64,000 bases of DNA, taken from the IMG/VR virus record IMGVR_UViG_3300008952_000004, positions 96,001 through 160,000 of that record; one strand, 5' to 3'. Position numbers and translations under genes: made by a program. Below are positions 2,382 through 58,868 of this stretch, piece after piece. Within the stretch, counting starts at the first letter, position 1. Every line of letters begins with the position of its first letter. Source of the stretch: a virus. The notes beneath the pieces were generated by a model. It saw nothing but the letters and a program-made list of their open reading frames with translations, was not told the origin of the DNA and searched no databases.

Positions 2382-3362
2382 ATGTCGAAAATGTTACAAG
2401 AGGCTATTGTTGATGCAGAGGCACTTCGCGAGGCATCCTTGCGAAACGCAGAACAGGCAGTCATAGAAAAGTATGAGTCCGAAATTAAAGCAGCAGTTAC
2501 CGCATTGCTGGAAGCCCCGGAAGATCTTGCCTTGGATGCAGACCCAATGGGCTTGGGAGATGAAGCTCCCGAAGGTGTGGAGACTCTTTCACAACAATTG
2601 CCAGATGCAGCAACTGACGGTGAAAATCTTTGCCCTTGCCCCGAAGAAGAAGAAGCAGTTGAATTAGACTTGGACGCACTTGTTGCCGCCGCTTCCGCCG
2701 AAGAGGAGCCTCCTGCGGGTCTTCCCGGCGATTTAGCTTTGGAAGAGGAGAAAGTGGATTTGAGCGAGGACCTTCTTTCTAAGCTTGTAGCTGATTTATC
2801 TGAAGAGCTAACTGTTGATGTTTCCCCTAAATCTGATGGTTGGGCAGGTGCCACAGCCGGTCAGGTGGAAGAGGCTGAAGAACAAGCAGTAGCAGAAGAA
2901 CAAGATACAGAGATTTCCGAGGAAAACGAGGAACTCAGAAAGAACATCAAAGACCTTGAAGAAAAGTTGGCAAGATCCAGCAAAAGATTCAAGGTTCTTA
3001 AAGAAGAAAAGAACAAAATTAAAAATATCACTCTGAAAATGCGTAATCATGTTGATAGCGTAAACCTTCAGAATGCCAAACTACTCTACACTAATCGTGT
3101 TTTGTCTAGCGCCTCCCTGAATGAGCGGCAAAAAATTAAAATTGCTGAAGCTATTTCAATTGCGAAATCCGTAGATGAAGCGAAGACCATCTTTGAGACT
3201 CTTCAAAACGCAGTGGGGACTTCTTCTAAAAAGAATCCTAAATCACTGAGTGAAGTAGTGGAACGACGGACTTCAACTCTGCCTCGGGCGACCAAGGTAG
3301 AAAAAGCATCCGATCCGGCAGCGGAGAGGATGAGAATTCTAGCAGGAATTTCTAAGAAATAA
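2382..3362 (+). CDS. Prohead core scaffolding protein (T4 gp22-like)
   Basis: Immediately upstream of the MCP; acidic coiled coil with many L/I-x-E sites; C-terminal 'ERMRILAGI'. Confidence 0.8.
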   Translation: MSKMLQEAIVDAEALREASLRNAEQAVIEKYESEIKAAVTALLEAPEDLALDADPMGLGDEAPEGVETLSQQLPDAATDGENLCPCPEEEEAVELDLDALVAAASAEEEPPAGLPGDLALEEEKVDLSEDLLSKLVADLSEELTVDVSPKSDGWAGATAGQVEEAEEQAVAEEQDTEISEENEELRKNIKDLEEKLARSSKRFKVLKEEKNKIKNITLKMRNHVDSVNLQNAKLLYTNRVLSSASLNERQKIKIAEAISIAKSVDEAKTIFETLQNAVGTSSKKNPKSLSEVVERRTSTLPRATKVEKASDPAAERMRILAGISKK

Positions 3363-3388: not shown

Positions 3389-5221
3389 ATGTCTGTTTTA
3401 GAAAAACTCACAGAAGGTATTGTTAACCGTTCCCTCGCCAAAGATGGTCAGGCACTTCTCAATAAATGGGAAAATACTGGTCTTTTGGAGGGGTTAGGTA
3501 ACGACACTACCAAGAATAGTATGGCTTGTCTCCTAGAGAATCAAGCCAAGGAGCTTCTCCGAGAAGCTTCAGCCATGTCACAGGGTGACGTGGAAGGGTT
3601 CGCAGCAGTTGCGTTCCCAATCGTCCGTCGCGTATTCGGTGGACTTATTGCTAACGACCTCGTTAGCGTTCAGCCTATGAGCTTACCCTCTGGTCTGATC
3701 TTTTTCCTTGACTTCCAACACACTGATAGCCGGTTGCAGTTCTCTGCTGGGGACTCTATCTATGGTGGTGGAAAGGTAGCCAAGGGTATTGTCGATGGTG
3801 TTAGCACCACTGGCGGGTTCTATGATCTGTCTAACGGCTATGCTTCTCCGACTGGTTCTGTGCTGCTGGCCATCGCTGGTGGTGGTTCTGGTGACCCCGA
3901 CCCGGCAGATATGGCTGACAACGAGATCAATGATGGTGCGACTGCGGCGAACGCTTGCTTCACACAGGCGACTGGTCACACCATTGCTGCCCTCAACAAC
4001 GCTCAGAAGAAAGCGATTCGCTGGGATCCTGACGTGCTCGGCGATTCGGACACTACGAAGGAGGTTACCTCTGTAATTGTTAAGCTTGGAACGTCTGAAA
4101 TGGCAGAGCTAAACGCGGACCAGTTGACTTCTTGCGTGCTTCGCACCACGGCTGAAGGCTCAACCGTATCGGTTAATGGTCTTAGTGGCGATTCGTATTT
4201 GCGTCGACTGACCCATCTCGGTTATTACGACGTCAATGGCGATCTCGTCGCCGGTTCTAAGGATCAGTTCCTTTCGATGTACATTCTTTCGACGGCTGGT
4301 TCACTGGCGCTCTCGGGCGATCAGTTCCTGCACTTCGCTCGTAAGGATGCGTTTGCGGCTGGCGGCGCCACTGGTGCGGTCGTGGGCGCTGACGGTTGGG
4401 GTCTTGAGGGTCGCACCAACTCTCCGGCTTCTGATCTTTCCAGCGCCGATTTGAACACTCGTATCCCTGAGATCGACATCAAGGTAGACAGCATCGCTGT
4501 GACTGCCGTGACGAAGAAGCTCAAGGCTAAGTGGACTCCGGAGTTGGGACAGGATCTCAACGCCTATCACAACCTTGACGCTGAGGTTGAGTTGACTGGT
4601 ATTCTCTCCGAGCAGATTGCTCTTGAGATTGATCAGGAGATTCTCAACGATCTCGTTCAGGGAGCCACGGCTGGCACACTCTATTGGAGTCGCCGCCCCG
4701 GTCAGTTTGTAGATCCTGAGACTGGCGCAAGCATCACAAGTGCAACCGCACCTCCGGACTTCACCGGAACGGTTTCCGAGTGGTATGAGACGCTTGTTGA
4801 GACAATCAACGACGTTTCCGCTCGTATTCACCGCAAGACTCTTCGTGGTGGTGCCAACTTCCTTGTTTGTGGACCCGAGGTCGCAAACATCCTTGAGTTC
4901 ACCAGTGGTTTCCGCGCAAGCATTACCGCTGACGACGACAAAGGGACAGTTGGCGCTGTTAACGCTGGTTCAATCAGCAAGAAGTGGGATGTATGGGTTG
5001 ACCCTTACTTCCCGCGCAATGTGGTCCTTGTTGGACGTAAGGGTGGTAGCTTCCTTGAGAGTGGCTATGTGTATGCTCCTTATGTTCCTCTTCAGGTCAC
5101 ACCAACCATCTTTGGTGACGAAGATTTCCTTCCTCGTAAGGGAGTAATGACTCGTTATGCTAAGAAGATGGTTCGCCCCGACATGTATGGTCTTGTCGTG
5201 GTACGCGATCTGATTGGTTAA
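3389..5221 (+). CDS. gp23: Major capsid protein, T4 gp23-like
   Basis: Motifs 'KWENTGLLEGL', 'LLRE/A' propeptide end, 'FPIVRRVF...VSVQPM..PSGLIF', 'KLKAKWTPELGQDLNAYHNLDAEVEL', 'YAPYVPL', 'KGVMTRYA'. Confidence 0.97.
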   Translation: MSVLEKLTEGIVNRSLAKDGQALLNKWENTGLLEGLGNDTTKNSMACLLENQAKELLREASAMSQGDVEGFAAVAFPIVRRVFGGLIANDLVSVQPMSLPSGLIFFLDFQHTDSRLQFSAGDSIYGGGKVAKGIVDGVSTTGGFYDLSNGYASPTGSVLLAIAGGGSGDPDPADMADNEINDGATAANACFTQATGHTIAALNNAQKKAIRWDPDVLGDSDTTKEVTSVIVKLGTSEMAELNADQLTSCVLRTTAEGSTVSVNGLSGDSYLRRLTHLGYYDVNGDLVAGSKDQFLSMYILSTAGSLALSGDQFLHFARKDAFAAGGATGAVVGADGWGLEGRTNSPASDLSSADLNTRIPEIDIKVDSIAVTAVTKKLKAKWTPELGQDLNAYHNLDAEVELTGILSEQIALEIDQEILNDLVQGATAGTLYWSRRPGQFVDPETGASITSATAPPDFTGTVSEWYETLVETINDVSARIHRKTLRGGANFLVCGPEVANILEFTSGFRASITADDDKGTVGAVNAGSISKKWDVWVDPYFPRNVVLVGRKGGSFLESGYVYAPYVPLQVTPTIFGDEDFLPRKGVMTRYAKKMVRPDMYGLVVVRDLIG

Positions 5222-8020: not shown

Positions 8021-10891
8021 ATGTCAGTAAAGAGATTTAAATTTGTTTCGCCCGGAGTGTTTATTAATGAAATTGATAACTCTCAACTCCCGCGAACCCA
8101 AAACAAGTTAGGACCAGTTATTATTGGACGCACATTACGAGGACCAGCAATGCGTCCCGTAACAGTTGAGTCCCAGTCAGAATTCGTAGAGATGTTTGGA
8201 CAACCCCAGCCCGGTGGTGTTGCTAACGATGTTTGGCGTGAAGGTAATCTTCAATCACCAATGTACGCGACTTATGCTGCGATGTCATACCTAAGAAACA
8301 ATGGTCCTGTTACTATGGTCCGCTTGTTGGGTAACAACCATGAAGATGCGACCGGCGCAGGCGAAGCAGGTTGGTCAGTCGCGAAAGAGGCTTACGGACT
8401 CTTTCTTTGGGATTCCGGCGCCGCACACAATCCAGCGACTCCAGTAACTGGTACATTGGCGGCTGTTTTCTACAGCAAGCTAGGTGCGCCGGTACTTAAA
8501 GGTCCTGCGCGAAGTGGCTCCGCAGACAATATGACTCACGTTAGCGGTACCGGTGGTGCTATTAAAAGTGTTGGCGACGACCGAGAGTTTATGATGACGA
8601 TTTGGAATACAGCCGCAGGTTCTACTGCCGCTGTTAGTAAAGATATTACGACTTCATTCAACTTTAATAAAAGATCAAGCAAATTCATTAGAAAGGTGTT
8701 TAATACAAATCCGGCTCTTTTAGACGCAACTAGTATTGCAGCAGAGAACCGAAAAGATTATTTCTTGGGTCAAACCTTTGAGAATACCCTTGTTGATTAC
8801 CTAGGTAATTCAGATGCAGGCTCTGTTCTTGGAATAGTTGCTCCACTACGCGAAAAGTCTGGTGGCTCCAATAGAGCAGGTAATGATTTCCGTATGGCTG
8901 CAACTGCTGGAACCACTGGCTGGATCTTTTCTCAAGACTTGACCGCTGATTCTGGCTCTTTTGCGCCTGCCTTATCAGATGCCGGAGCCGTAACTGGTGG
9001 TGTAGATAAACTATTTAAAATTCATGCATTGAACAGCGGCGAGTGGGAATCTAAAAATCTTAAAGTTTCTATTCGCGACATCAAGTATGCACGAAACCCA
9101 GAAGAGAATCCGTATGGAACGTTCACCGTTGAGGTGCGTAGAGTACAAGATTCTGATATTTCACGTCAAGTTGTAGAATCATTTTCGAATTGCAATTTGA
9201 ATCCCTCTTCACCAAATTACATTAAAAGAAAGATTGGTGATCAATCACTAAGCTGGAATGAAACGGAACGCCGTTACACATATCAAGGGGATTACGAGAA
9301 TAATTCTCGTTTTATTCGTATTGAAAGCTCTGAAGATTTGGACGCCGCCGCGTTAGATCCCCAGTGCCTACCGTTCGGCTTCTTTGGTCCGCCGAAGTTG
9401 TCGTCTGTCAACCTTGCAGGTAACAACGACGTCACTTGTCCAGCGAATGTACTGTTCAATGTAACAACTTCTGATGTCGATTCACTGGCTCCAGCAGGAA
9501 ACAAGTTCAAAGCCTATGATGAAATCGAGTTGCAGCTTGATTTTCCTGAGTGCCCAATTCGAAAGAATAGTGCTTCTGGCTCCCTTTCTAACAGAAAGCA
9601 AGCCTATTGGGGAGCATATACACAAGAGCCAAGCAACGATAAGACAACTAACGCTTCTTGGGGCGACCACATGTATCCTCTCCCTGATTCACTTGGTACA
9701 GATAGTGATCTAGTAGAGGCATCCTGTTGGGCATTTTCGCTTGATGATATTAAGTTGAGCGGATCGAATAATGCCGATGCTCTCTGGGCAGCAGGTAACC
9801 GCAAGGCGAACGATTCTATCAGTGTGACCTCCAGTTGGAGCGGCACATTGGACCAGGGTTGTGATAAATTTACAATGCCGCTGTGGGGTGGTTTTGACGG
9901 TCATAACATTAATGTACTTGATCCGTATGCTCCAGATGTTGTAATGGCATCAGACTCCACAGACAAGACCGATTCTTCGTTCTACTCCATCAAGAAAGCA
10001 ATTGATGCTTGTTCTTCGCAGGAAGAGGTTGAATTTAATTTGATGGCAATGCCAGGAATCACACACCGAGTACTCAATCGCCACATGGTAGACGTTTGTG
10101 AATCCCGTGGTGATGCACTGGCAGTGTTGGACATCGCAGGGGGCTATAAACCCCGCGCTAACCGCTCTGCGGGTGACGCTTTTAGCTCATATGGCGGTAC
10201 GGTTGATGCTACTCTTGACGAGATTGATGAGCTACAAATTAATTCAAGTTATGCTTGTACTTATTATCCTTGGGTGCAAATTAAGGATTCCGCCACCGAC
10301 GCTGTTCTGTGGTCACCTCCTTCGGTTGTTGCACTTGGTACTTTCGCTAGTTCCGAGAGGAAATCAGATGTTTGGTTTGCCCCAGCCGGTTTCACTAGGG
10401 GTGGACTGACAGAAGGTTCAGCGGGCATGCCAGTACTTGGTGTTCGAGATCGCCTCACTGCAAAAGATCGTGACGATCTATATGCAGCTAGGGTCAATCC
10501 GATTGCCAGCTTCCCGGCAGAGGGTATTGTAATCTTTGGTCAAAAGACAATGCAGGTAACAGCTTCCGCTCTCGATAGGATTAATGTCCGTCGCTTGATG
10601 ATTTACGTCAAGAAAGAGATTTCGCGAATGGCTGCAACCACACTTTTCGAGCCGAACGTCCAAAGAACTTGGTTTAACTTTACTTCAAGAGTTGAGCCTT
10701 TCCTTCAGGGCGTCAAGGCAGGTCTAGGACTGGAAGACTTTAAGGTTGTGTTGGATGAAACCACAACCACACCAGACTTGGTTGATCGTAACATTATGTA
10801 TGCTAAGATCCTCCTGAAACCAACAAAAGCTATTGAATATATTGCGATTGACTTCGTGATTACAAATAGTGGAGCTTCTTTCGAAGATTAA
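8021..10891 (+). CDS. gp18: Contractile tail sheath protein (gp18-like)
   Basis: 'FVSPGVFINEIDNS' N-terminus; 'YYPWVQI', 'WFAPAGFTRG', 'VNPIASFP..GIVIFGQKT...SALDRINVRRL' C-terminus. Confidence 0.96.
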   Translation: MSVKRFKFVSPGVFINEIDNSQLPRTQNKLGPVIIGRTLRGPAMRPVTVESQSEFVEMFGQPQPGGVANDVWREGNLQSPMYATYAAMSYLRNNGPVTMVRLLGNNHEDATGAGEAGWSVAKEAYGLFLWDSGAAHNPATPVTGTLAAVFYSKLGAPVLKGPARSGSADNMTHVSGTGGAIKSVGDDREFMMTIWNTAAGSTAAVSKDITTSFNFNKRSSKFIRKVFNTNPALLDATSIAAENRKDYFLGQTFENTLVDYLGNSDAGSVLGIVAPLREKSGGSNRAGNDFRMAATAGTTGWIFSQDLTADSGSFAPALSDAGAVTGGVDKLFKIHALNSGEWESKNLKVSIRDIKYARNPEENPYGTFTVEVRRVQDSDISRQVVESFSNCNLNPSSPNYIKRKIGDQSLSWNETERRYTYQGDYENNSRFIRIESSEDLDAAALDPQCLPFGFFGPPKLSSVNLAGNNDVTCPANVLFNVTTSDVDSLAPAGNKFKAYDEIELQLDFPECPIRKNSASGSLSNRKQAYWGAYTQEPSNDKTTNASWGDHMYPLPDSLGTDSDLVEASCWAFSLDDIKLSGSNNADALWAAGNRKANDSISVTSSWSGTLDQGCDKFTMPLWGGFDGHNINVLDPYAPDVVMASDSTDKTDSSFYSIKKAIDACSSQEEVEFNLMAMPGITHRVLNRHMVDVCESRGDALAVLDIAGGYKPRANRSAGDAFSSYGGTVDATLDEIDELQINSSYACTYYPWVQIKDSATDAVLWSPPSVVALGTFASSERKSDVWFAPAGFTRGGLTEGSAGMPVLGVRDRLTAKDRDDLYAARVNPIASFPAEGIVIFGQKTMQVTASALDRINVRRLMIYVKKEISRMAATTLFEPNVQRTWFNFTSRVEPFLQGVKAGLGLEDFKVVLDETTTTPDLVDRNIMYAKILLKPTKAIEYIAIDFVITNSGASFED

Positions 10892-50972: not shown

Positions 50973-51191
50973 ATGAAAGATGATTATCAACCAAAATACT
51001 CTGTTGGGTATAGCTATAGAATCGGTAATGTATTATACATAATTGAGAAAATTAAAGATGGGATGTATTATGAAAGAAGCTCGAATTTTATTGGCTATAG
51101 TTGTGTTCGTTGTGATGTGTTTGATTCCAATCACGGTTCTAGCGTAGCAGTATCTAGGGGCATCGGGCTACCATCCCATCCGGAGGCTTAA
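50973..51191 (+). CDS. Hypothetical SH3-like protein
   Basis: 'PKYSVG' start; TAATG coupling to the next gene. Confidence 0.45.
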   Translation: MKDDYQPKYSVGYSYRIGNVLYIIEKIKDGMYYERSSNFIGYSCVRCDVFDSNHGSSVAVSRGIGLPSHPEA

Positions 51192-52108
51192 TGGTGGATC
51201 CACACCAGAGGTTTAAGTCTTACAGAGGTACGAAATGCTGGCAGGCTCATATCTCAGAGATTAATCGCGAAGATGATCTAAGGATCGCAAATCTTACGGA
51301 AGAAAACGTGGCAAAATTACGAATTAGCGATTTTGAATTTTCCTATGTTCCAAGTAATCAGAAGAACCTGTGCAGAGAAATTAAAGAGTTCATTGAGCGG
51401 CACGAGTGGCTTGCAAAACTTCCGAATCGACCAACACATAGATTCACAGTGAGGTTAAAAAAGAGTGGGGTTCTGGCAGGTACTATTATTATGGCTACAC
51501 CCAATGCATTTTCAAACTTATTGGGAAAAGAAAATCGGGACAAAGAAAAATTAATTTCCCGAGGTGCCTGTATTTCTTGGGGTCCAAAAAACCTTGGTTC
51601 TTGGCTGATCATGCAGTCCATTAGATGGATGGTTCAAAACACCAACTTTCGCTACTTTACAGCATATTCCGATCCGGAGGCTAAAGAGCTTGGTACCATA
51701 TACCAAGCATGTAATTTTCATTATCTAGGGCAGACAAGCGGAACAACTTTTCAATACTTAGACCCAGATCACCCTGAGAAGGGTTGGTTTAGTGATAGGG
51801 AATTTCGCAAGAAATCAAAATATTATCGTTATGCCGCAGCTATTGGAATCGATAAAGAAACTTGGAAAAGTTGTATGAAAAAATATTCTCCAAACTGGGA
51901 TGTTATTCCTCCGAATGTAAAAGTTAAAATTAAAGCAGAGGAGGCAAAATATAGAGACAGTTGTATAAAACGCTCTGTACCCGCTAAACACAAATATTGC
52001 TATATTCTGGGTAAGGGAAAGAAAGAAACCAAAACCTTGCTTGAGAATTTCGCTAAAAATAGTCCAGGTAAACAAAACTTATCTTACCCGAAAAACAGGG
52101 GGAGTTAG
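51191..52108 (+). CDS. mom: Mom-family (GNAT-fold) DNA adenine modification enzyme candidate
   Basis: 'IKEFIERHEWL', 'LISRGAC...PKNLGSWLI', 'TAYSDPE...GTIYQACNFHYLG' pattern typical of Mu Mom-like proteins. Confidence 0.65.
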   Translation: MVDPHQRFKSYRGTKCWQAHISEINREDDLRIANLTEENVAKLRISDFEFSYVPSNQKNLCREIKEFIERHEWLAKLPNRPTHRFTVRLKKSGVLAGTIIMATPNAFSNLLGKENRDKEKLISRGACISWGPKNLGSWLIMQSIRWMVQNTNFRYFTAYSDPEAKELGTIYQACNFHYLGQTSGTTFQYLDPDHPEKGWFSDREFRKKSKYYRYAAAIGIDKETWKSCMKKYSPNWDVIPPNVKVKIKAEEAKYRDSCIKRSVPAKHKYCYILGKGKKETKTLLENFAKNSPGKQNLSYPKNRGS

Positions 52109-52142: not shown

Positions 52143-52170
52143 TTGACATTCCGCGCCAGATGCTTATAAT
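52143..52170 (+). promoter_or_regulatory. Consensus sigma70 promoter
   Basis: TTGACA-N16-TATAAT upstream of hsp20. Confidence 0.85.
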
Positions 52171-52241: not shown

Positions 52242-52694
52242 ATGACAAATGCAGCACTTACAACCTATTTCAATAGACGACCGAGCCTTGTTGGCGAGAA
52301 TGTCTTTAATGAGTTTTTTAACGGAATGTTTCAAGACATTCCAACTTTGGTCAAGCAGACCACACAGGGATACCCCGTCACTGATATCTATGAGGACGAG
52401 ACTGGTAACACAGTCTTAGAATTCGCCTTAGCTGGCTTTCAAAAGGAGAATGTGCATGTCACAGTAAATCCAGAGAAAAATAGAATTGACGTCAGTTCTG
52501 ATAGTCATGGTGATGAGGACAGTTCAGCGCTGAAAACTCGTAGGATTGCTCGGAGAGCTTTTCATAAGACGTTTGTAAATTATAATAATAATTTGGATTT
52601 AGCAAAGGTATCTGCGTCGTTCGAGAATGGGTTGTTGCGCGTTACAGTGCCGGTACGCCCGGAAGCTGAACCGTTAGTTGTTAAAATTAAATAA
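52242..52694 (+). CDS. Small heat shock protein Hsp20/IbpA-like
   Basis: 'YPVTDI', 'LEFALAGF.KE', 'IARRAF...F', 'ASFENGLLRVTVP'. Confidence 0.93.
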   Translation: MTNAALTTYFNRRPSLVGENVFNEFFNGMFQDIPTLVKQTTQGYPVTDIYEDETGNTVLEFALAGFQKENVHVTVNPEKNRIDVSSDSHGDEDSSALKTRRIARRAFHKTFVNYNNNLDLAKVSASFENGLLRVTVPVRPEAEPLVVKIK

Positions 52695-52720: not shown

Positions 52721-52750
52721 AAAGGGGGACGGAATCCGTCCCCCTTTTGT
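52721..52750 (+). terminator. Terminator hairpin (possibly bidirectional)
   Basis: AAAGGGGGACGG-AAT-CCGTCCCCCTTT. Confidence 0.85.
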
Positions 52751-52770
52751 GTTTTTACCTTTCGAAAGAA

Positions 52771-52777
52771 CTAATTA
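52771..52777 (+). promoter_or_regulatory. Putative late promoter box CTAATTA heading the cargo cassette
   Basis: Immediately after the terminator, about 25 nt before the 52802/52805 start. Confidence 0.6.
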
Positions 52778-52801: not shown

Positions 52802-53065
52802 GTGATGATAATAACAAAACAAGTCTTAAAAGAGATGATAGTCGAAGAGATACAAAAAAGTCTTCTAAGCGAAGAGATAGCCGAAGAGGCAGATCCCGCT
52901 CAGGCATATGTTGATTGGATCGTTGCGATTCAAGAAGCTGCTACTGAAGCTTTAAAAGAAGTTGAGAGCGGCACCGAACCTTATGAAGCTGCATTTAGCT
53001 CTCGACTAAACCAATTGGCGTTCGGCTTAACTGGTGAAGATTTTTACCACCACTACTTTAGCTAG
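52802..53065 (+). CDS. Small leader-bearing protein (class B leader)
   Basis: 'MIITKQVLKEMIVEEIQKSLLSEE'. Confidence 0.65.
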   Translation: MMIITKQVLKEMIVEEIQKSLLSEEIAEEADPAQAYVDWIVAIQEAATEALKEVESGTEPYEAAFSSRLNQLAFGLTGEDFYHHYFS

Positions 53066-53076
53066 GAGAATAAATA

Positions 53077-54009
53077 ATGGGAAAGAAAAGACTTACAGAA
53101 ATTGCAGTTAGGGAGTGGGCTCAGTATTTGCGCGAGGCAGAATCTGCCACTGCTGCTGCCAGTGAGGCAGAAGTCACTGCGACTACTGATTTATCTGATT
53201 TGCATAAAAAAGCAAAAGATGCTCACAAAAATCGGGGTAAGGCTCTACAGGACCTAGCCTCTGCTGCTGAAGTTGAGAAAAAGGTTGCAACTGACGCCCA
53301 GGCAATTGAGGGCGATCGCGCTAATGCCTATAAAGCTGCCATTACGGCAAGGGACACCTCCAGTGATTTGCGTGATCAAAACAGCAAAGCAAACAAGAAA
53401 AAAGAAGATATTTTAAAAAGGTCAGCCGATGCACAAGAAAAGAAGGCGAAGGCTGATGAACTTAGCGCCAAAGCCGCAGAAGCAATTGCAAAATCGGCTG
53501 AAGAAGTGGCTGATCTTGAAAACACAATGGCGAAAATTAACTCTCAATTTGAAAAAGCAAATCAAGAATTAAATAAAGCATCTGAAATGTTTGCAGATCT
53601 GGATAATCAAGCCGCAGACATATCAAAGCAGAAAGCCGCTGCTGCTGAGCAGCGCAAATCTGCTCAAGAGCAAGCAGCGACCGCTGCTGAGGAAGCAAGC
53701 AAGTTGAGCGATGAGTTCCAAAAGGCACATCAAGCATCTGCTGACGCTGCCGAAGATACAGCAACAGCTATAGAGGATGATGAAGAAGCCGAAGAAGCGG
53801 AAGAAGAAGCCGAAGAAGAGGAAGAAGAAGAGGAAGAAGAAGAGAAAGAAGATGAGGAGCAAGAGAGGGAAGAAAAAGAAGCAGATCGGCAAGCGGCAGA
53901 CGAAGAAGCTGCGGAAGAAGCCGAGGAAGAAGCTGCGGAAGAAGCCGAGGAAGAAGCTGAGGAGCCTGATCTAAAGGATATTAAGGAGATATTTAAGAGA
54001 TATCTATAG
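53077..54009 (+). CDS. Ala/Lys/Glu coiled-coil protein with poly-Glu tail and leader
   Basis: 'RLTE..VREWAQYLRE/A' N-terminus; long coiled coil; EEEEEEEE and EEAAEEAE repeats. Confidence 0.7.
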   Translation: MGKKRLTEIAVREWAQYLREAESATAAASEAEVTATTDLSDLHKKAKDAHKNRGKALQDLASAAEVEKKVATDAQAIEGDRANAYKAAITARDTSSDLRDQNSKANKKKEDILKRSADAQEKKAKADELSAKAAEAIAKSAEEVADLENTMAKINSQFEKANQELNKASEMFADLDNQAADISKQKAAAAEQRKSAQEQAATAAEEASKLSDEFQKAHQASADAAEDTATAIEDDEEAEEAEEEAEEEEEEEEEEEKEDEEQEREEKEADRQAADEEAAEEAEEEAAEEAEEEAEEPDLKDIKEIFKRYL

Positions 54010-54015
54010 AGGTGA

Positions 54016-54324
54016 TTGATGCGACGTCGTGCAACAAACCAATATAAAAATTTAAAATATTTAGTATATTTTTTACTCATGGTTGCATTTTGGACAATGC
54101 TATTGTGTGGTCCAATGGTCGCTAATGGAAAAACCGCACCGCCAAATTCTGCCAGATCTAAATTTTATGACTTTAGTGAGCAGTTGATCGACGGTGAAAT
54201 AAAAAAGCCAACTGCTCTATATACAGACGCCCGCGCCCGCGCAAAATTCGAACGACTTTTAAGACTCAAGAGATCATTTATGAGAGAATTATTCAATACA
54301 GCAAAAGAAAAAGTTTTTAAGTAA
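54016..54324 (+). CDS. cglF: CglF/GltF-like secreted gliding-motility protein homolog
   Basis: Signal-peptide-like N-terminus, then 'YDFSEQLIDGEIKKP...Y...R...FERLLRLKRSF..EL', matching the DF..xx[IV][DE]GE[IL].KP...F..L[IL].[LV]R..F..EL pattern I recall for myxobacterial CglF. Confidence 0.65.
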   Translation: MMRRRATNQYKNLKYLVYFLLMVAFWTMLLCGPMVANGKTAPPNSARSKFYDFSEQLIDGEIKKPTALYTDARARAKFERLLRLKRSFMRELFNTAKEKVFK

Positions 54325-54464
54325 CGCAAGGAGATAATAAATGTCTAAATATGACGATTTGATGCATAGTTATACTGTTGCCAAAGCGGCTGAAAATATT
54401 GATTGGTCCTCTGAATCTGGCACCACCAAGTTAATCGCTTGCACTTATCACGCGGGGTAGAAAA

Positions 54465-54641
54465 ATGAAATTGCCTGACATGAAACAAGTTTTAATCGCC
54501 TGCGTGGGTATCAATGTTGCCCTCCTTGCCGGAGGTTTAGCCTTGGAGGACTACCAACTCGTAACACTGGCAGTGCTTTCAGGAGCTTCTTGCTTGCTGG
54601 GCATCCGTGTTAGAAGGCAGATCGACGAGGAGCAGGAATGA
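54465..54641 (+). CDS. Small two-TM membrane protein (58 aa, not in ORF track)
   Basis: MKLPDMKQVLIACVGINVALLAGGLALEDYQLVTLAVLSGASCLLGIRVRRQIDEEQE; ATGA-coupled to 54638. Confidence 0.55.
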   Translation: MKLPDMKQVLIACVGINVALLAGGLALEDYQLVTLAVLSGASCLLGIRVRRQIDEEQE

Positions 54642-55243
54642 AACTTATAATGGAAAGCTTCAGGAAGTTTATTAACGAGGCTCCAATGGAGTTGTCTAAA
54701 ACGACAGGTCTTTATGTGGAAGATTCTTTTATCGCTGTTTATGATTATTATGCGATGAGGGCATCAATTAAAAGATCTTTGGGCAGCGAAGAGCACATGG
54801 AGAAAGTAGGTAAAGCGATTCTCGGTGCTATGCGCTTGGGCTTTCGCTCTGGAAATATGGTTGTTGAAGAAGTATGGGCACAGAAAGGCTACGGACCACT
54901 CCTGTACAGGCTTGCTCTTGAACAGTCTTCGCAGCACGGGTTAGCCCCATCCAGAGTCAAAGGCGAGGTTTCCGATGCTGCGTCAAGCGTGTGGAAGGAA
55001 TTCTATGACGGCAAGGGTGCCGAGTACGCAAAACACAAACCGGCAGAAGAACAAATCCACGGGATAGAGTGGCTGGATGCTGTTTATTATCCCACCAGTA
55101 CAGTTCAAGGTAAGGACACATCCGTTGCTTTGAATAAAAAAGTTTTTAACAGAACCTCTGATCCTTACGAGGAGTTGGAAACGAATTTTCTTGAGATTGC
55201 CCACTCAAAGTTGCGAGACGAAATGTCAAAGGTGGGGTACTGA
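54638..55243 (+). CDS. Leader-bearing GNAT-fold protein
   Basis: 'MKLIMESFRKFINE/A'; 'VEEVWAQKGYGPLLYRLAL' acetyl-CoA-binding-like motif. Confidence 0.55.
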   Translation: MKLIMESFRKFINEAPMELSKTTGLYVEDSFIAVYDYYAMRASIKRSLGSEEHMEKVGKAILGAMRLGFRSGNMVVEEVWAQKGYGPLLYRLALEQSSQHGLAPSRVKGEVSDAASSVWKEFYDGKGAEYAKHKPAEEQIHGIEWLDAVYYPTSTVQGKDTSVALNKKVFNRTSDPYEELETNFLEIAHSKLRDEMSKVGY

Positions 55244-56307
55244 TGAAGCTAATAATGGAAAACTGGCGCAGGCACTTGAATGAGATTACCTCTGTTCCGC
55301 AGGAGCATATGCAAGCTTTTAAGGATGCTATAGCCGATTCCAAATTTTGGACGCTCCCACACACTGAAGATGAAATAGACATAGGACCAGCAGAAGAGCT
55401 TACCACCCCCGCTGTTGAGGCTTTGGCTAATTCTTTAAACGATGTTGCCGAAGCCTTGGGAACAGAAATATATTTTCTTTTTACCACGATAAGCGAAGAG
55501 GAATATGCGTTGGGACCGGATAGTCCATATCCCGGCTACCCAAACAACTGGCTGATGCAGGGTGCATATCAGGGACCACAAAAGGGAAAGCATGTGGTTT
55601 GGTTTCAATTTCGACCGCTAGCTGAAGACTTCGAGATGGCTAAGCTTAATTCCGAGGCTCTGGTTAAGGTGTTATCTCAAACTTTAAATCATGAGCTTGT
55701 GCACTATTATCAGCTTAAAAAGCAAGCTGCAAACAAAGGGATCAGCGACGAAGAAGCATGGGCTGAGCTTGAAAAGGATCCAAAGCAATTGCCACAAGAC
55801 GGCGAGGAGCAGACTTACCTTGGCTTGCACAACGAGATAGATGCATATGCCCATGAAGCAGCAGAGCAACTGTTGGACAAACACTCGCCAGAAGAGGCGC
55901 TGGATATAATCCGAAAGCTGTCGGCAGATAACTTAGAAAAATATCCAGAAATATCTTCGGTTGTTAAAAGATATGTGGAAGTCTTCAAGAGTGATCCAAA
56001 AACACTGGACAAATTCCGAAAGAAGCTGGTTAAACAGATTGAAAGCCAGTCGGGTATGCAGGAAATATTTAATAATTGGCGAGGGTATTTAAAAGAAATG
56101 ATTGATTTGGACATTGAAGTAGGGGATGTGATCCTCGGTGGGAAATATAAAAATAAAAGAATGATCGTCAAGGACATCGGCGAAGATGAGTTGGGGCAGC
56201 CAACCGTAAATGGGAAACCAATTTTAAAATTCAGGATTGAGAAATTTTTGCCCGACGAAAAAAAGAGCAAGAAGACACTTGATGCGGAGAAGGAGAAAGA
56301 CGAATGA
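55243..56307 (+). CDS. Leader-bearing HExxH metallopeptidase-like protein with second internal leader and SH3-like module
   Basis: 'MKLIMENWRRHLNE/I'; 'LNHELVHYYQ...Y...HNEIDAYA'; internal 'MQEIFNNWRGYLKE/M'. Confidence 0.65.
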   Translation: MKLIMENWRRHLNEITSVPQEHMQAFKDAIADSKFWTLPHTEDEIDIGPAEELTTPAVEALANSLNDVAEALGTEIYFLFTTISEEEYALGPDSPYPGYPNNWLMQGAYQGPQKGKHVVWFQFRPLAEDFEMAKLNSEALVKVLSQTLNHELVHYYQLKKQAANKGISDEEAWAELEKDPKQLPQDGEEQTYLGLHNEIDAYAHEAAEQLLDKHSPEEALDIIRKLSADNLEKYPEISSVVKRYVEVFKSDPKTLDKFRKKLVKQIESQSGMQEIFNNWRGYLKEMIDLDIEVGDVILGGKYKNKRMIVKDIGEDELGQPTVNGKPILKFRIEKFLPDEKKSKKTLDAEKEKDE

Positions 56308-56594
56308 AATTTCTAATGGAAAGATGGAAAAGGTTTGTGAACGAGAACGAAGTCTACGACCAGAAGAGCTACGACTTGGGCTTGTCCAACGAAGACGGCA
56401 CCAGAACTCAATCCGGCAAGCTTCTAGGGAATATCGCAAAGAGAGGACGAGAAGGTTATACCCCATCTGCGGGGCAAAAAACGATTCTTTCCATTCTCAG
56501 TGATGAAGGCTTGATCAGTTATGGACTTCACCCTATGGGCGGCTCAAGAGCAGTCATCACTGATAAAGGACTAGACGCATTGTCTGGTATATAG
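56304..56594 (+). CDS. Leader-bearing small winged-helix-like protein
   Basis: 'MKFLMERWKRFVNE/N'; 'ILSILSDEGLI.......AVITDKGLDAL'. Confidence 0.55.
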   Translation: MKFLMERWKRFVNENEVYDQKSYDLGLSNEDGTRTQSGKLLGNIAKRGREGYTPSAGQKTILSILSDEGLISYGLHPMGGSRAVITDKGLDALSGI

Positions 56595-56611
56595 AAGAAG
56601 GAAAAAGAAGA

Positions 56612-57064
56612 ATGAAACTTATAATGGAAAACTTTAGGAAATTTATTAAAGAGGCACAATGGGGAGGCTTTACTGGAGGCGCCGCGCCATTAGATGAACC
56701 AGCACCAGACAGCGGAGTTGTCCCTCCCGAACAGCTAAGAAAGATGTGGGAGATCTATATTGAAATGGGTATGAGCCCCGAAGAGATTTTACAAACCCCA
56801 GAGTTTGTTGAAGCTGGGATTACCGATCCCGAGCAATTGCAAGAAGCAATCACTCTTGATATTGAAGTCGGAGATATTGTTCTCGGCGGCAAGTATAAAA
56901 ATAAAAGAATCGAGGTCAAAGAGATTGGCACAGATGATATTGGTCAGCCGACCATCAATGGCAAATCGCTTTTAAAATTTAGAATTGAGAAACAACTACC
57001 AGACAGCAAAAAGAGCAAAAAAACGCTTGATGCGGAAAAAAAGGAAGAGGGGTCAAAAGAATGA
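56612..57064 (+). CDS. Leader-bearing protein with SH3-like module
   Basis: 'MKLIMENFRKFIKE/A'; C-terminal module near-identical to that of 55243. Confidence 0.7.
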   Translation: MKLIMENFRKFIKEAQWGGFTGGAAPLDEPAPDSGVVPPEQLRKMWEIYIEMGMSPEEILQTPEFVEAGITDPEQLQEAITLDIEVGDIVLGGKYKNKRIEVKEIGTDDIGQPTINGKSLLKFRIEKQLPDSKKSKKTLDAEKKEEGSKE

Positions 57065-57642
57065 AGAAAATACTAACAGAGTGGCGTAAATATGCCATGA
57101 AAGAAGCTTACTATGGGGGCGTACCGGGCGAACCAGAAACGCCAGCAGGGTATGGAGGTGCGCTTGACGCAGCGAAGGCTCAGCAACACTTGAGCGATGA
57201 GATCGATGACCTAGTTCGTTTGGGCAAGATAGATATTAATGACTTGTCCGTTGAAACCCTCAGAGCAAATCAAGAAATCCCGTGGGATAAATTTCAAGCC
57301 ATTGACGATGAAGTTTTAGGAGATATCATTCGAGACTATCAGAGGAAAAAGAAATTTTATAGAGAGAGTTTGCAAGAAGAACCGCGTGGAGTCTCAGACT
57401 TACTTAAGTCGGCAGAGATGATCCGGTGGCACCTTGGAGCGCTTACAAATGATGCGGGGGACTTGGCTATGCTCACGCAACAACATCAAGAAACCATTGA
57501 TGAGCTTTTAGCAGGGCAGAATTTTGAAGAAGCTGTCAAAGCCCTTGAACCCTATATTGAAAAGCTGGGACCATTGGCTCAGGACATCGCGACTGCCCAT
57601 AAAGATCTTCAGCTTTTGAAAGACTCACTCAAGGACGGCTAG
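57061..57642 (+). CDS. Leader-bearing hypothetical protein
   Basis: 'MKKILTEWRKYAMKE/A'; internal 'SLQE/E'. Confidence 0.65.
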   Translation: MKKILTEWRKYAMKEAYYGGVPGEPETPAGYGGALDAAKAQQHLSDEIDDLVRLGKIDINDLSVETLRANQEIPWDKFQAIDDEVLGDIIRDYQRKKKFYRESLQEEPRGVSDLLKSAEMIRWHLGALTNDAGDLAMLTQQHQETIDELLAGQNFEEAVKALEPYIEKLGPLAQDIATAHKDLQLLKDSLKDG

Positions 57643-57645
57643 CCC

Positions 57646-58305
57646 ATGAAAGATATAATGGAACAATGGAGAGAGTACTCCAGCGGAGACGCGACACAAA
57701 CCCAATTAGATGAAGGGTTGATCGACGACGCCATGTCATGGGTCAAAGAGAAGGGCGCCGCAGCTAAAGAGGCGACCATAGATTTCTTTCAGAAGCTCAA
57801 GGTTGAGCTTGGTGAAACTAAGGAAGGCGCGCTTTTATTGGCTAAAATGGTGCGAGGCGAACAGCTAACGCCAGAAGAAGAACAAGCACTCACAACACAG
57901 GCTCAGGACATCGGCAAGGGTCTTCCACTGTTGGCAATATTTGTCTTGCCGGGAGGTGGCATAGCTGCTGCAGCGTTGGTGAAGTTAGCAAAGAAGTTTG
58001 GCGTCGACTTGATGCCCACAGCATTTGCTGATGAGACGAATGAAAGCCCTATAAAAGAACGAGCAGTCAACGTGGGACCTATCTGGCGAAAATTTAAACC
58101 AGAGTTGCAAGCTGCCATGGCTGAGTTCATGACGTCATACCTCGCAAACCAGAATGAGGTGGAAGGCTTAGAAGATCTCAATCAAGAGCGTCTGGTCACG
58201 GCTATGACAACGGCTGCTACGTCTGAAGTGTCCAAGGTGTGTCTGGTCGTGAAAGCAACGCCAACCAAACACGGGATTCTGAACGCTGGGAAACAAAATA
58301 AGTGA
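57646..58305 (+). CDS. Leader-bearing protein with LETM1-like hydrophobic hairpin
   Basis: 'MKDIMEQWREY...QLDE/G'; 'ETKE...L.K...G..LT.EE......Q..D..K.LPLLAIFVLPGG'. Confidence 0.55.
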   Translation: MKDIMEQWREYSSGDATQTQLDEGLIDDAMSWVKEKGAAAKEATIDFFQKLKVELGETKEGALLLAKMVRGEQLTPEEEQALTTQAQDIGKGLPLLAIFVLPGGGIAAAALVKLAKKFGVDLMPTAFADETNESPIKERAVNVGPIWRKFKPELQAAMAEFMTSYLANQNEVEGLEDLNQERLVTAMTTAATSEVSKVCLVVKATPTKHGILNAGKQNK

Positions 58306-58868
58306 AATTAATAATGGAAAGTTGGCGAGGCTTCTTGAACGAGGGATCCAAAGAAACCATTGTAGCATTTTTCGGTTCCTCTGGCTCTGGTAAGAGTCAC
58401 GCTAAGAAATACTTTGTAGATCAAGGCTGGCGCGAGATTAGAACCAACTCCACCCGCCCGCCAAGAGGGGCGGAGGATAAAGAATATAATTTCTGGTCCG
58501 AAGAAGAGTTCAAAGAACTCATGGACGCTGGCAAGCTCGTTAATACGAATGAATATCAAGGAAACTGGTATGGTACTCACGTTGATGATCTTAACGAGCC
58601 GGGTTCAGCCGTGATGCTTACAGACACAACCAGCTTGGACAAGCTCAAGCAGGTAGCCGGGGATCGCCTTACCCTTGTGTACACCGCCCCACCTTCAGAC
58701 GCAGAGATGGAAAAGAGACACAAGGATCGTGGCACACCAGAACGACTGGCAGTTGCAGCCGCTGAGAAGGAACGGGATACTGCCGAACTCGCGGATCGCG
58801 GCGACGTACTGACCGTCAACAACCAACAAGAAATTGAAGATTTAGAGCAGCAATTGCGGGCTTTTTAG
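58302..58868 (+). CDS. gmk: Leader-bearing guanylate kinase-like protein
   Basis: GTG start; 'KLIMESWRGFLNE/G'; P-loop 'GSSGSGKS', 'STRPPRGAE', 'Y.F.S.EEF', 'YQGNWYGT'. Confidence 0.8.
   Translation: MKLIMESWRGFLNEGSKETIVAFFGSSGSGKSHAKKYFVDQGWREIRTNSTRPPRGAEDKEYNFWSEEEFKELMDAGKLVNTNEYQGNWYGTHVDDLNEPGSAVMLTDTTSLDKLKQVAGDRLTLVYTAPPSDAEMEKRHKDRGTPERLAVAAAEKERDTAELADRGDVLTVNNQQEIEDLEQQLRAF

Follow-up and report, generated by a model that had tools for sequence, protein, structure and literature searches.

In phage T4, the first 10 residues of the internal protein IPIII suffice to target proteins, foreign ones included, to the scaffolding core, and the peptide is then removed by the gp21 protease (PMC9026906, PMC3012670, PMC5694885). 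Proteases of the T4 family cut C-terminal to Glu in a short motif, as at the T4 sites ITE-6, LTE-619 and LIE-9, and among the T-even internal proteins, diverse as they are, the targeting sequence alone is conserved (PMC9026906, PMC3012670, PMC5694885). Among the head proteins of giant phages such as phiKZ and SPN3US, the paralogues gp53 and gp54 have identical 15-residue N-termini containing cut motifs (PMC5694885). Here a short leader peptide is described, found at the start of tandem, otherwise unrelated genes (the cassette, positions 52802-58868 of the window) in an uncultured marine T4-like phage. The window is the stretch of 64,000 nucleotides (nt) that was analysed, bases 96001-160000 of the 189,713-bp IMG/VR record IMGVR_UViG_3300008952_000004, which is rated complete by CheckV and carries every gene on the + strand. 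The leader is probably the counterpart, in this lineage, of the T4 capsid-targeting sequence (CTS), a propeptide placed on polymorphic cargo proteins. The T4 precedent had already been invoked in an earlier, sequence-only reading of the window, and an internal-protein leader cut by gp21 after L/I-x-E is what the literature describes (PMC9026906, PMC3012670).

The leader resembles the CTS of IPI, IPII, IPIII and the Alt propeptide in being a short N-terminal tag on unrelated proteins, with a Met-Lys start, spaced hydrophobic residues and an L/I-x-E end. A protease of the gp21 family, a capsid protein of the gp23 family and a scaffold gene beside the capsid gene are also common to both systems, and in both the tagged genes are clustered and polymorphic between relatives (PMC9026906, PMC3012670). 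In contrast to the T4 CTS, the leader measures 14 residues rather than 10, and comes in two interchangeable classes. The cargo proteins are larger (96-354 amino acids (aa), and ~850 aa at most in relatives); most are acidic and many resemble enzymes. Internal leader copies occur in fusion proteins, and the repertoire is far larger. The function of the T4 CTS has been shown experimentally, whereas the system described here is known from sequence alone. The hypervariable internal-protein loci of T-even phages, which encode variable small basic proteins with CTS-like leaders, are similar in that close relatives have different genes at the locus but retain the leader (PMC9026906, PMC3012670). They differ from the present loci, which hold at least 106 cargo clusters, belong to an uncultured marine lineage distantly related to T-even phages, and in many relatives have a leader gene in slots of the head module also. 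The ejection and inner-body proteins of phiKZ and SPN3US resemble the present ones in having shared N-terminal propeptides ending in x-x-Glu on diverged head proteins, and a gp21-related protease. Those proteins, however, are paralogues with long propeptides and A/S-x-E sites, and the proteins considered here are unrelated, with a 14-residue tag ending in [LIV]-x-E. No description of the tag was found within a limited set of literature on capsid targeting and on marine phages and cyanophages.

Leader genes of the cassette

Seven consecutive open reading frames (ORFs), at 54638, 55243, 56304, 56612, 57061, 57646 and 58302, open with variants of MKLIMENWRxFLxE (14 residues). The sequence-only reading had listed seven consecutive genes with near-identical leaders, and both the start positions and the leader sequences are as it gave them. 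The leader genes, and the copy found inside one of them, are the following (E, expectation value; HMM, hidden Markov model).

54638..55243, + strand: leader and tentative GNAT-like cargo, 201 aa
55243..56307, + strand: leader, HExxH zincin-like domain, internal leader and small C-terminal module, 354 aa
56056..56097, + strand: internal leader copy of ORF 55243, placed where its domains join; ends in L-K-E; matrix score 22.2, HMM E 2.8e-7
56304..56594, + strand: leader and cargo, 96 aa; no family match
56612..57064, + strand: leader and cargo, 150 aa; its C-terminal module is a repeat of the one that ends ORF 55243
57061..57642, + strand: leader shifted by one residue and helical acidic cargo, 193 aa; no family at cut-off
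57646..58305, + strand: leader, next L-x-E at residue 23, and 219-aa cargo with a Gly-rich hydrophobic segment
58302..58868, + strand: leader (GTG start) and guanylate-kinase-like P-loop kinase, 188 aa

A position matrix derived from the seven leaders was run over the six frames of the whole genome, with 20 shuffles as control. It recovers the training seven and one untrained copy, at window 56056, with a score of 22.2; no shuffle scored above 16.5. An HMM of the leader, run over the same six frames, finds the identical eight copies, and no others in the whole genome at E<0.005. With eight copies, the leader is a short N-terminal peptide common to otherwise unrelated proteins of one phage. It had been taken for a genome-wide address tag; this is ruled out, as both six-frame scans place all copies of this leader, called class 1 below, in this cluster alone.

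The 42 bases encoding the leader are 68% identical between genes, and the flanks 26-31%; the 30 nt upstream of the leaders are unconserved, at 31% identity. One third of the identical degenerate residues are encoded by different codons across leaders, and selection therefore acts on the peptide. The genes had been described as mostly stop/start-overlapping, and indeed 5 of 7 junctions overlap, by 1 or 4 bases, four of them as ATGA or GTGA.

The leader in related phages

When IMG/VR was scanned by pattern, 521 matches to the peptide pattern and at least 120 stretches with the DNA pattern were obtained. In all, 133 loci were fetched, chosen by the leader alone. The search by leader HMM that the sequence-only reading had proposed for the full genome and for relatives yields, next to the eight copies of this phage, 221 leaders in these loci, 188 of them distinct. 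Among the 188, position 1 is Met in 97%, and the positions not fixed by the search pattern are F/Y at 11 (87%), L/I/V at 12 (81%) and Glu at 14 (78%). Conservation collapses at position 15, and nothing is conserved beyond. By this profile the leader ends in a predicted prohead-protease cut motif, [LIV]-x-E at positions 12-14.

The proteins behind the leaders are highly diverse. The blastp comparison of 195 cargo proteins gives 106 clusters, 75 of which are singletons, so that the modular joining of one leader to unrelated domains, noticed in the seven window genes, is real and of a scale (at least 106 clusters in relatives) far beyond those seven. Few of them have a Pfam match; those seen are guanylate kinase, GNATs, PGDYG, Peptidase_M23 and Zeta_toxin/AAA_33, along with LRV repeats, HD, a cytidylyltransferase and a 2H phosphoesterase. 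Relatives differ strongly in the genes found at the locus. Leader-gene clusters with partly different cargo are found in two of them: one relative, 79% identical over ORF 55243, has six leader genes, and the other, a complete genome of 184 kb at 50% identity, has ten strong leader copies. All five large related genomes carry 3-10 leader copies each, as clusters plus singles.

In 596 Gb of prokaryote genomes, DNA-pattern matches occur at chance level. Only one of the 120 matches listed is a true leader, and it resides in a 3.4-kb contig of a metagenome-assembled genome (L231), which is uninformative on the host. The tag is virtually absent from these prokaryote genomes and restricted to this phage lineage. 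Searches of the phage collection by blastn with the region gave no match.

Internal copies and a second leader class

Internal leaders have been identified at domain joints of fusion proteins, at window 56056, at position 9416 of the related locus L002, and in P0004, P0101 and P0118. From its sequence, ORF 55243 can be described as a fusion of two units, in which the HExxH domain is followed by the internal leader and the small module. In the relative L003, the module that lies behind the internal leader here forms a gene by itself (88 aa), headed by a separate leader; the small module is found also, without leader, in Pelagibacter phage HTVC008M. Leader genes that fuse appear to keep the internal leader at the joint, and P0004, P0101 and P0118 read as further, independent fusions.

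A second leader was recognised on homologues of the HExxH cargo. Among those with the cargo anchor, 70 carry the class-1 leader, and about 19 carry, at the same joint, a class-2 leader (MKITKxQLxxIIxEE), which in 18 of 19 ends in [LI]-x-E directly before the cargo. Two unrelated N-terminal peptides, common only in position and ending, thus appear interchangeable by sequence. In the genome studied here, the class-2 leader marks five tandem genes at genome 186326-188665 (L262), 26.3-28.7 kb past the window end, a cluster preceded by an ACTAWTTA box (see below) at genome 186286. It is found also on the gene of 105 aa that immediately precedes the large terminase gene (genome 86610-86927; L263:611-928) and on the first gene of the cassette (window 52802-53065), and a weak candidate marks the start of a 381-aa ORF at window 42336. 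Pfam and PHROG scans of class-2 proteins and of the head-module neighbours found no informative family.

A large ORF of 1038 aa at genome 9175-12291 (L261:176-3292) is made of at least four modules (clusters c3, c14, c47, c87), which in related phages are separate leader-tagged genes. The ORF matches phrog_2859 and DUF3008-like families.

Head machinery and position of leader genes

The phage encodes both a gp21-family protease and a gp23-family capsid protein, as a T4-type system would have. The prohead protease gene lies just upstream of the window (genome 92210-92815) and matches PF03420 (E 4.3e-37) and T4 gp21 (5jbl, E 6.2e-21); the major capsid protein (window 3389-5221) matches PF07068 (E 6.1e-71). 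At its N-terminus the capsid protein has a T4-like propeptide region, and L-R-E, two residues ahead of the stretch aligned with mature gp23, is the presumable cut site. The protease gene is preceded, in this order, by terminase, portal, two genes of no given function and a small membrane-like gene. A scaffold-like gene (window 2382-3362) adjoins the capsid gene, upstream, and tail sheath, tail tube and baseplate hub genes are present in the record. Four of five related records tested have the protease gene; the fifth is a fragment, 37% complete.

In the 133 leader loci, terminase, portal or neighbouring head genes were found in 40-45, and the protease gene in 27. Leader genes occupy particular slots. 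In some loci, a leader gene resides 1.2-1.9 kb upstream of the protease gene, and the cargo cluster that fills the slot differs from phage to phage. In others, it is found immediately downstream of the protease gene, where T4 has the scaffold gene: the gene directly 3' of the protease gene in three loci (L055:5508-6494, L049:501-1466, L076:3557-4420) encodes a leader-tagged protein of 288-329 aa with a phrog_2859-like domain. Searches by tblastn with head-module neighbours (p140, p105, the 245-aa protein of L014) found no cultured homologues.

According to the capsid protein, the nearest cultured phages are Flavobacterium phage immuto, Microcystis phage Mel-JY01 and Rhodothermus phage RM378 (41-48% identity), none of which has leader copies. 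The best hits of the protein in the phage collection are 33-52% identical over 55-64% of its length, the nearest cultured being at 48%, and no record there covers 80% or more of the length. Phages of this lineage abound in marine metagenomes. For the scaffold-like protein, over 3,400 homologues exist in metagenomes, many of them from Tara Oceans. The capsid protein measures 610 aa, and its gp23-family match falls in two separate stretches, with an insertion of ~230 residues between them.

Cargo domains

The domain guesses made in the sequence-only reading can be sorted by the support found for them. The guanylate kinase of ORF 58302 holds: the protein matches PF00625 (E 1.7e-13; 51.1 bits, curated cut-off 25.2) and phrog_1815 (E 3e-24), a P-loop G-x-x-G-x-G-K-S is seen in the translation, and the orthologue in L002 is 96% identical. 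The HExxH guess for ORF 55243 is borne out too, as H150-E151-x-x-H154, together with H196, E198 and E208, is invariant in 60 homologues. This cargo has more than 200 metagenomic homologues. The AlphaFold2 model of the protein has a predicted local distance difference test score (pLDDT) of 91, the leader being a detached helix of low confidence followed by coil. Comparison of the HExxH domain (window 55243-56085) with PDB structures by VIA-align gave weak whole-domain matches to DUF885, the ChlB HExxH domain and an aminopeptidase (Z 4.2-4.8), other matches being partial and helical only (Z up to 6.3). Foldseek found no match to the model in the PDB, and a profile of the family found nothing below E 0.08 among PDB sequences. 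Weak zincin, IrrE and peptidase rows were obtained in BFVD. The good structural neighbours are all uncharacterised phage proteins (Atlas template modelling (TM) score 0.77-0.79; BFVD E 1e-4), and by its model the domain looks like a phage-restricted zincin-like family.

For other genes the picture is mixed. All top Foldseek hits of ORF 54638 are GNATs, in agreement with the GNAT-like guess, and the family alignment has a G-x-G-like motif; the hits are weak, however (E 0.035-0.25, TM 0.2-0.33, from a model with pLDDT 60.6), and Pfam gives no hit, though two other leader cargo proteins do match GNAT families. This cargo cluster is the largest, with 18 members, and fills the head-module slot upstream of the protease in L011-L015. 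The LETM1-like guess has a counterpart in a LETM1_RBD hit of ORF 57646, which stays below the Pfam cut-off (15.9 against 25.3 bits), and an Atlas score of 0.79 is a lead only. Atlas look-ups of this ORF and of the small C-terminal module returned viral hypothetical clusters or sub-threshold LETM1 leads only. ORFs 56304 and 57061 and the small repeated module were assigned to no Pfam, PHROG or Atlas family.

Transcription signals

The box ACTAWTTA occurs 30 times on the + strand of the whole genome and 2 times on the - strand. Of the + strand boxes, 21 are intergenic, intergenic DNA making up 7.4% of the genome. Boxes are found 8-74 nt upstream of scaffold, neck, sheath, tube and fibre genes; in the genome scan, the replication module has none. 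Window positions include 2334, 5297, 7978, 10925, 12654, 41099, 44796, 47891 and 52770. In relatives, ACTAWTTA is similarly biased by strand (265 vs 17), and lies within 80 nt upstream of 37 of 183 leader genes. The box may serve this lineage as late promoter; it differs in sequence from the T4 late promoter TATAAATA. The cassette was said to begin just after a terminator, at a late-type box, and this is the arrangement found:

52721..52747, + strand: intrinsic terminator ending the upstream hsp20 unit; 12-bp stem with 8 G-C pairs, 3-nt loop, then a T run
52770..52777, + strand: promoter-like box ACTAATTA of the ACTAWTTA family, 32 nt before the first cassette gene

The hsp20 gene (52242-52694) lies behind a perfect sigma-70-type promoter (52143-52170; TTGACA, 16 nt, TATAAT). 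Its sequence suggests that hsp20 is transcribed by unmodified host RNA polymerase, unlike the cassette directly downstream.

Probable capsid targeting and alternative explanations

If the leader works as the T4 CTS does, transcription of the cassette would be late and would start from the type of promoter used by the structural genes. Each product would dock, by its N-terminal amphipathic helix, on the scaffolding core of the assembling prohead. A gp21-type protease would then remove the leader after [LIV]-x-E, positions 12-14, and would probably cut also at I-M-E (positions 4-6) and at the internal leader copies of fusion proteins. In T4, Asp in place of the corresponding Glu prevents processing and leaves targeting intact. 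The freed cargo would stay in the head, available for delivery with the DNA, and new cargo would be gained by fusion of either interchangeable leader class to a gene. Core binding, leader cleavage, presence in the virion, ejection and the roles of the cargo, anti-defence included, are steps that we infer.

Several observations weigh against this reading. Two of the seven window leaders deviate from the L/I-x-E ending: ORF 57646 has no Glu at leader position 14, and ORF 57061 has M-K-E there. No sequence homology between the leader and the T4 CTS is detectable; only shape and ending are alike, in peptides too short for statistics. Most cargo proteins are acidic (pI 4.8-6.0, one at 8.0), whereas T4 IPI-III are basic, and several, such as the guanylate kinase and the GNAT, resemble ordinary cytoplasmic enzymes. 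No cultured phage with the tag was found by tblastn of leader proteins against the phage collection. The leader-bearing phages are all of one lineage, and the co-occurrence of leader and protease is for this reason not independent evidence. We infer the lateness of ACTAWTTA only from the identity of the genes behind the box.

Other explanations have been considered for the same data. The leader might be a docking helix for a partner other than the prohead, such as a cytoplasmic hub, the phage GroEL, the membrane or some other part of the virion (the tail, for instance), and gather enzymes without capsid packaging. This would suit a peptide modelled as a short amphipathic helix detached from the fold, and a cargo that is acidic and enzyme-like, unlike the basic T4 internal proteins; GroEL and Hsp20 are encoded near the cassette, and some cargo clusters have weak tail or tape-measure-like PHROG hits. 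Such docking is judged unlikely, since it leaves unexplained why two different leader classes, both joined to the cargo at one and the same place, nearly always end in [LIV]-x-E, why internal copies are found where proteins have fused, and why leader genes are preferentially placed beside the prohead protease gene. The match of the leader ending to the cut motif is accounted for if the leader is a propeptide cut by a phage or host protease to activate or time enzymes, with no role as address and no packaging; premature activity of enzyme-like cargo (zincin-like, Zeta-toxin-like, M23) could harm. The substrates of T4-family prohead proteases, however, are bound to the core and are cut within the prohead (PMC5694885, PMC9026906); cleavage by a gp21-type protease would therefore imply prohead entry of the cargo. 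A detached 14-residue helix is moreover an unlikely inhibitor of more than 100 folds, and the cut-motif ending of both leader classes, the internal copies and the place beside the protease gene are again left unexplained, which makes simple activation quite improbable.

A module acting at the DNA or RNA level, without peptide function, has also been weighed, either as a translation-coupling start or as microhomology for cassette shuffling. The overlap of most junctions, four of which (ATGA or GTGA) fix the first two codons, the near identity in DNA of some leader pairs, and the strong variation of gene content at the locus between relatives would all be in keeping with it. It is highly improbable, given that identical residues are so often encoded by different codons next to an unconserved upstream region, that the motif is found in frame at internal positions which need no translation start, and that amino acid conservation is position-specific across 188 distinct copies.

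The reading of the leader as a capsid-targeting propeptide can be carried further. The two cleavable tags might load more than 100 enzyme families, injected as first-strike effectors for host takeover or anti-defence. This extension is possible, if rather doubtful. The cargo would then comprise zincin-like and GNAT-like proteins, P-loop and Zeta-toxin-like kinases, an M23 peptidase and 2H phosphoesterases, partly made as polyproteins cut at internal tags, and the tag would be a sequence-only marker of the injected proteome.

Should the leader be T4-like in function, a 14-residue motif would mark, from sequence alone, the capsid-carried proteins of abundant uncultured marine phages. The leader genes would represent a catalogue of candidate injected effectors, mostly of fold unassigned, which includes a confident HExxH domain; cargo recruitment by leader fusion would be far larger in scale than in T-even phages; and new tag-protease pairs would be available for loading foreign proteins into phage capsids. 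Should it prove not to tag proteins for the capsid, an N-terminal module that spans the lineage, is sharply bounded and can be exchanged still calls for another explanation.

Other genes of the cassette and upstream region

Four genes reside between the ACTAWTTA box and the first class-1 leader gene.

52802..53065, + strand: 87-aa acidic protein (pI 4.2) with class-2 leader; class-2 HMM score 22.6, E 1.5e-5
53077..54009, + strand: very acidic protein of 310 aa, rich in Ala and Glu (net charge -47); present also in the relative L002, where it is conserved
54016..54324, + strand: 102-aa basic protein with hydrophobic N-terminal segment; homologues in 4 related loci
54465..54641, + strand: hydrophobic, membrane-like protein of 58 aa; the first leader gene follows directly

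The product of ORF 52802 has seven [LIV]-x-E sites, where 3 are expected. The motif 'VREWAQYLRE' of ORF 53077 had been taken for a relative of the leader. This assignment is rejected: the leader HMM gives no match to the motif even at E<=10, and the likeness is one seen by eye. The ORF reaches the cut-off of no Pfam family, and its product might be akin to a scaffold or core protein, or be left over from a fusion. The protein features long Glu/Ala runs, and its C-terminus, ...IKEIFKRYL, resembles by eye the start of the leader. In L002 (7825-8004) and L003 (5403-5582) as well, the small hydrophobic gene, of 58-59 aa, directly precedes a leader gene, either the first or one close by.

Just upstream of hsp20, a gene at window 51191-52108 encodes a Mom-family protein (PF25680, E 1.4e-12), with a possible DNA-modification function.

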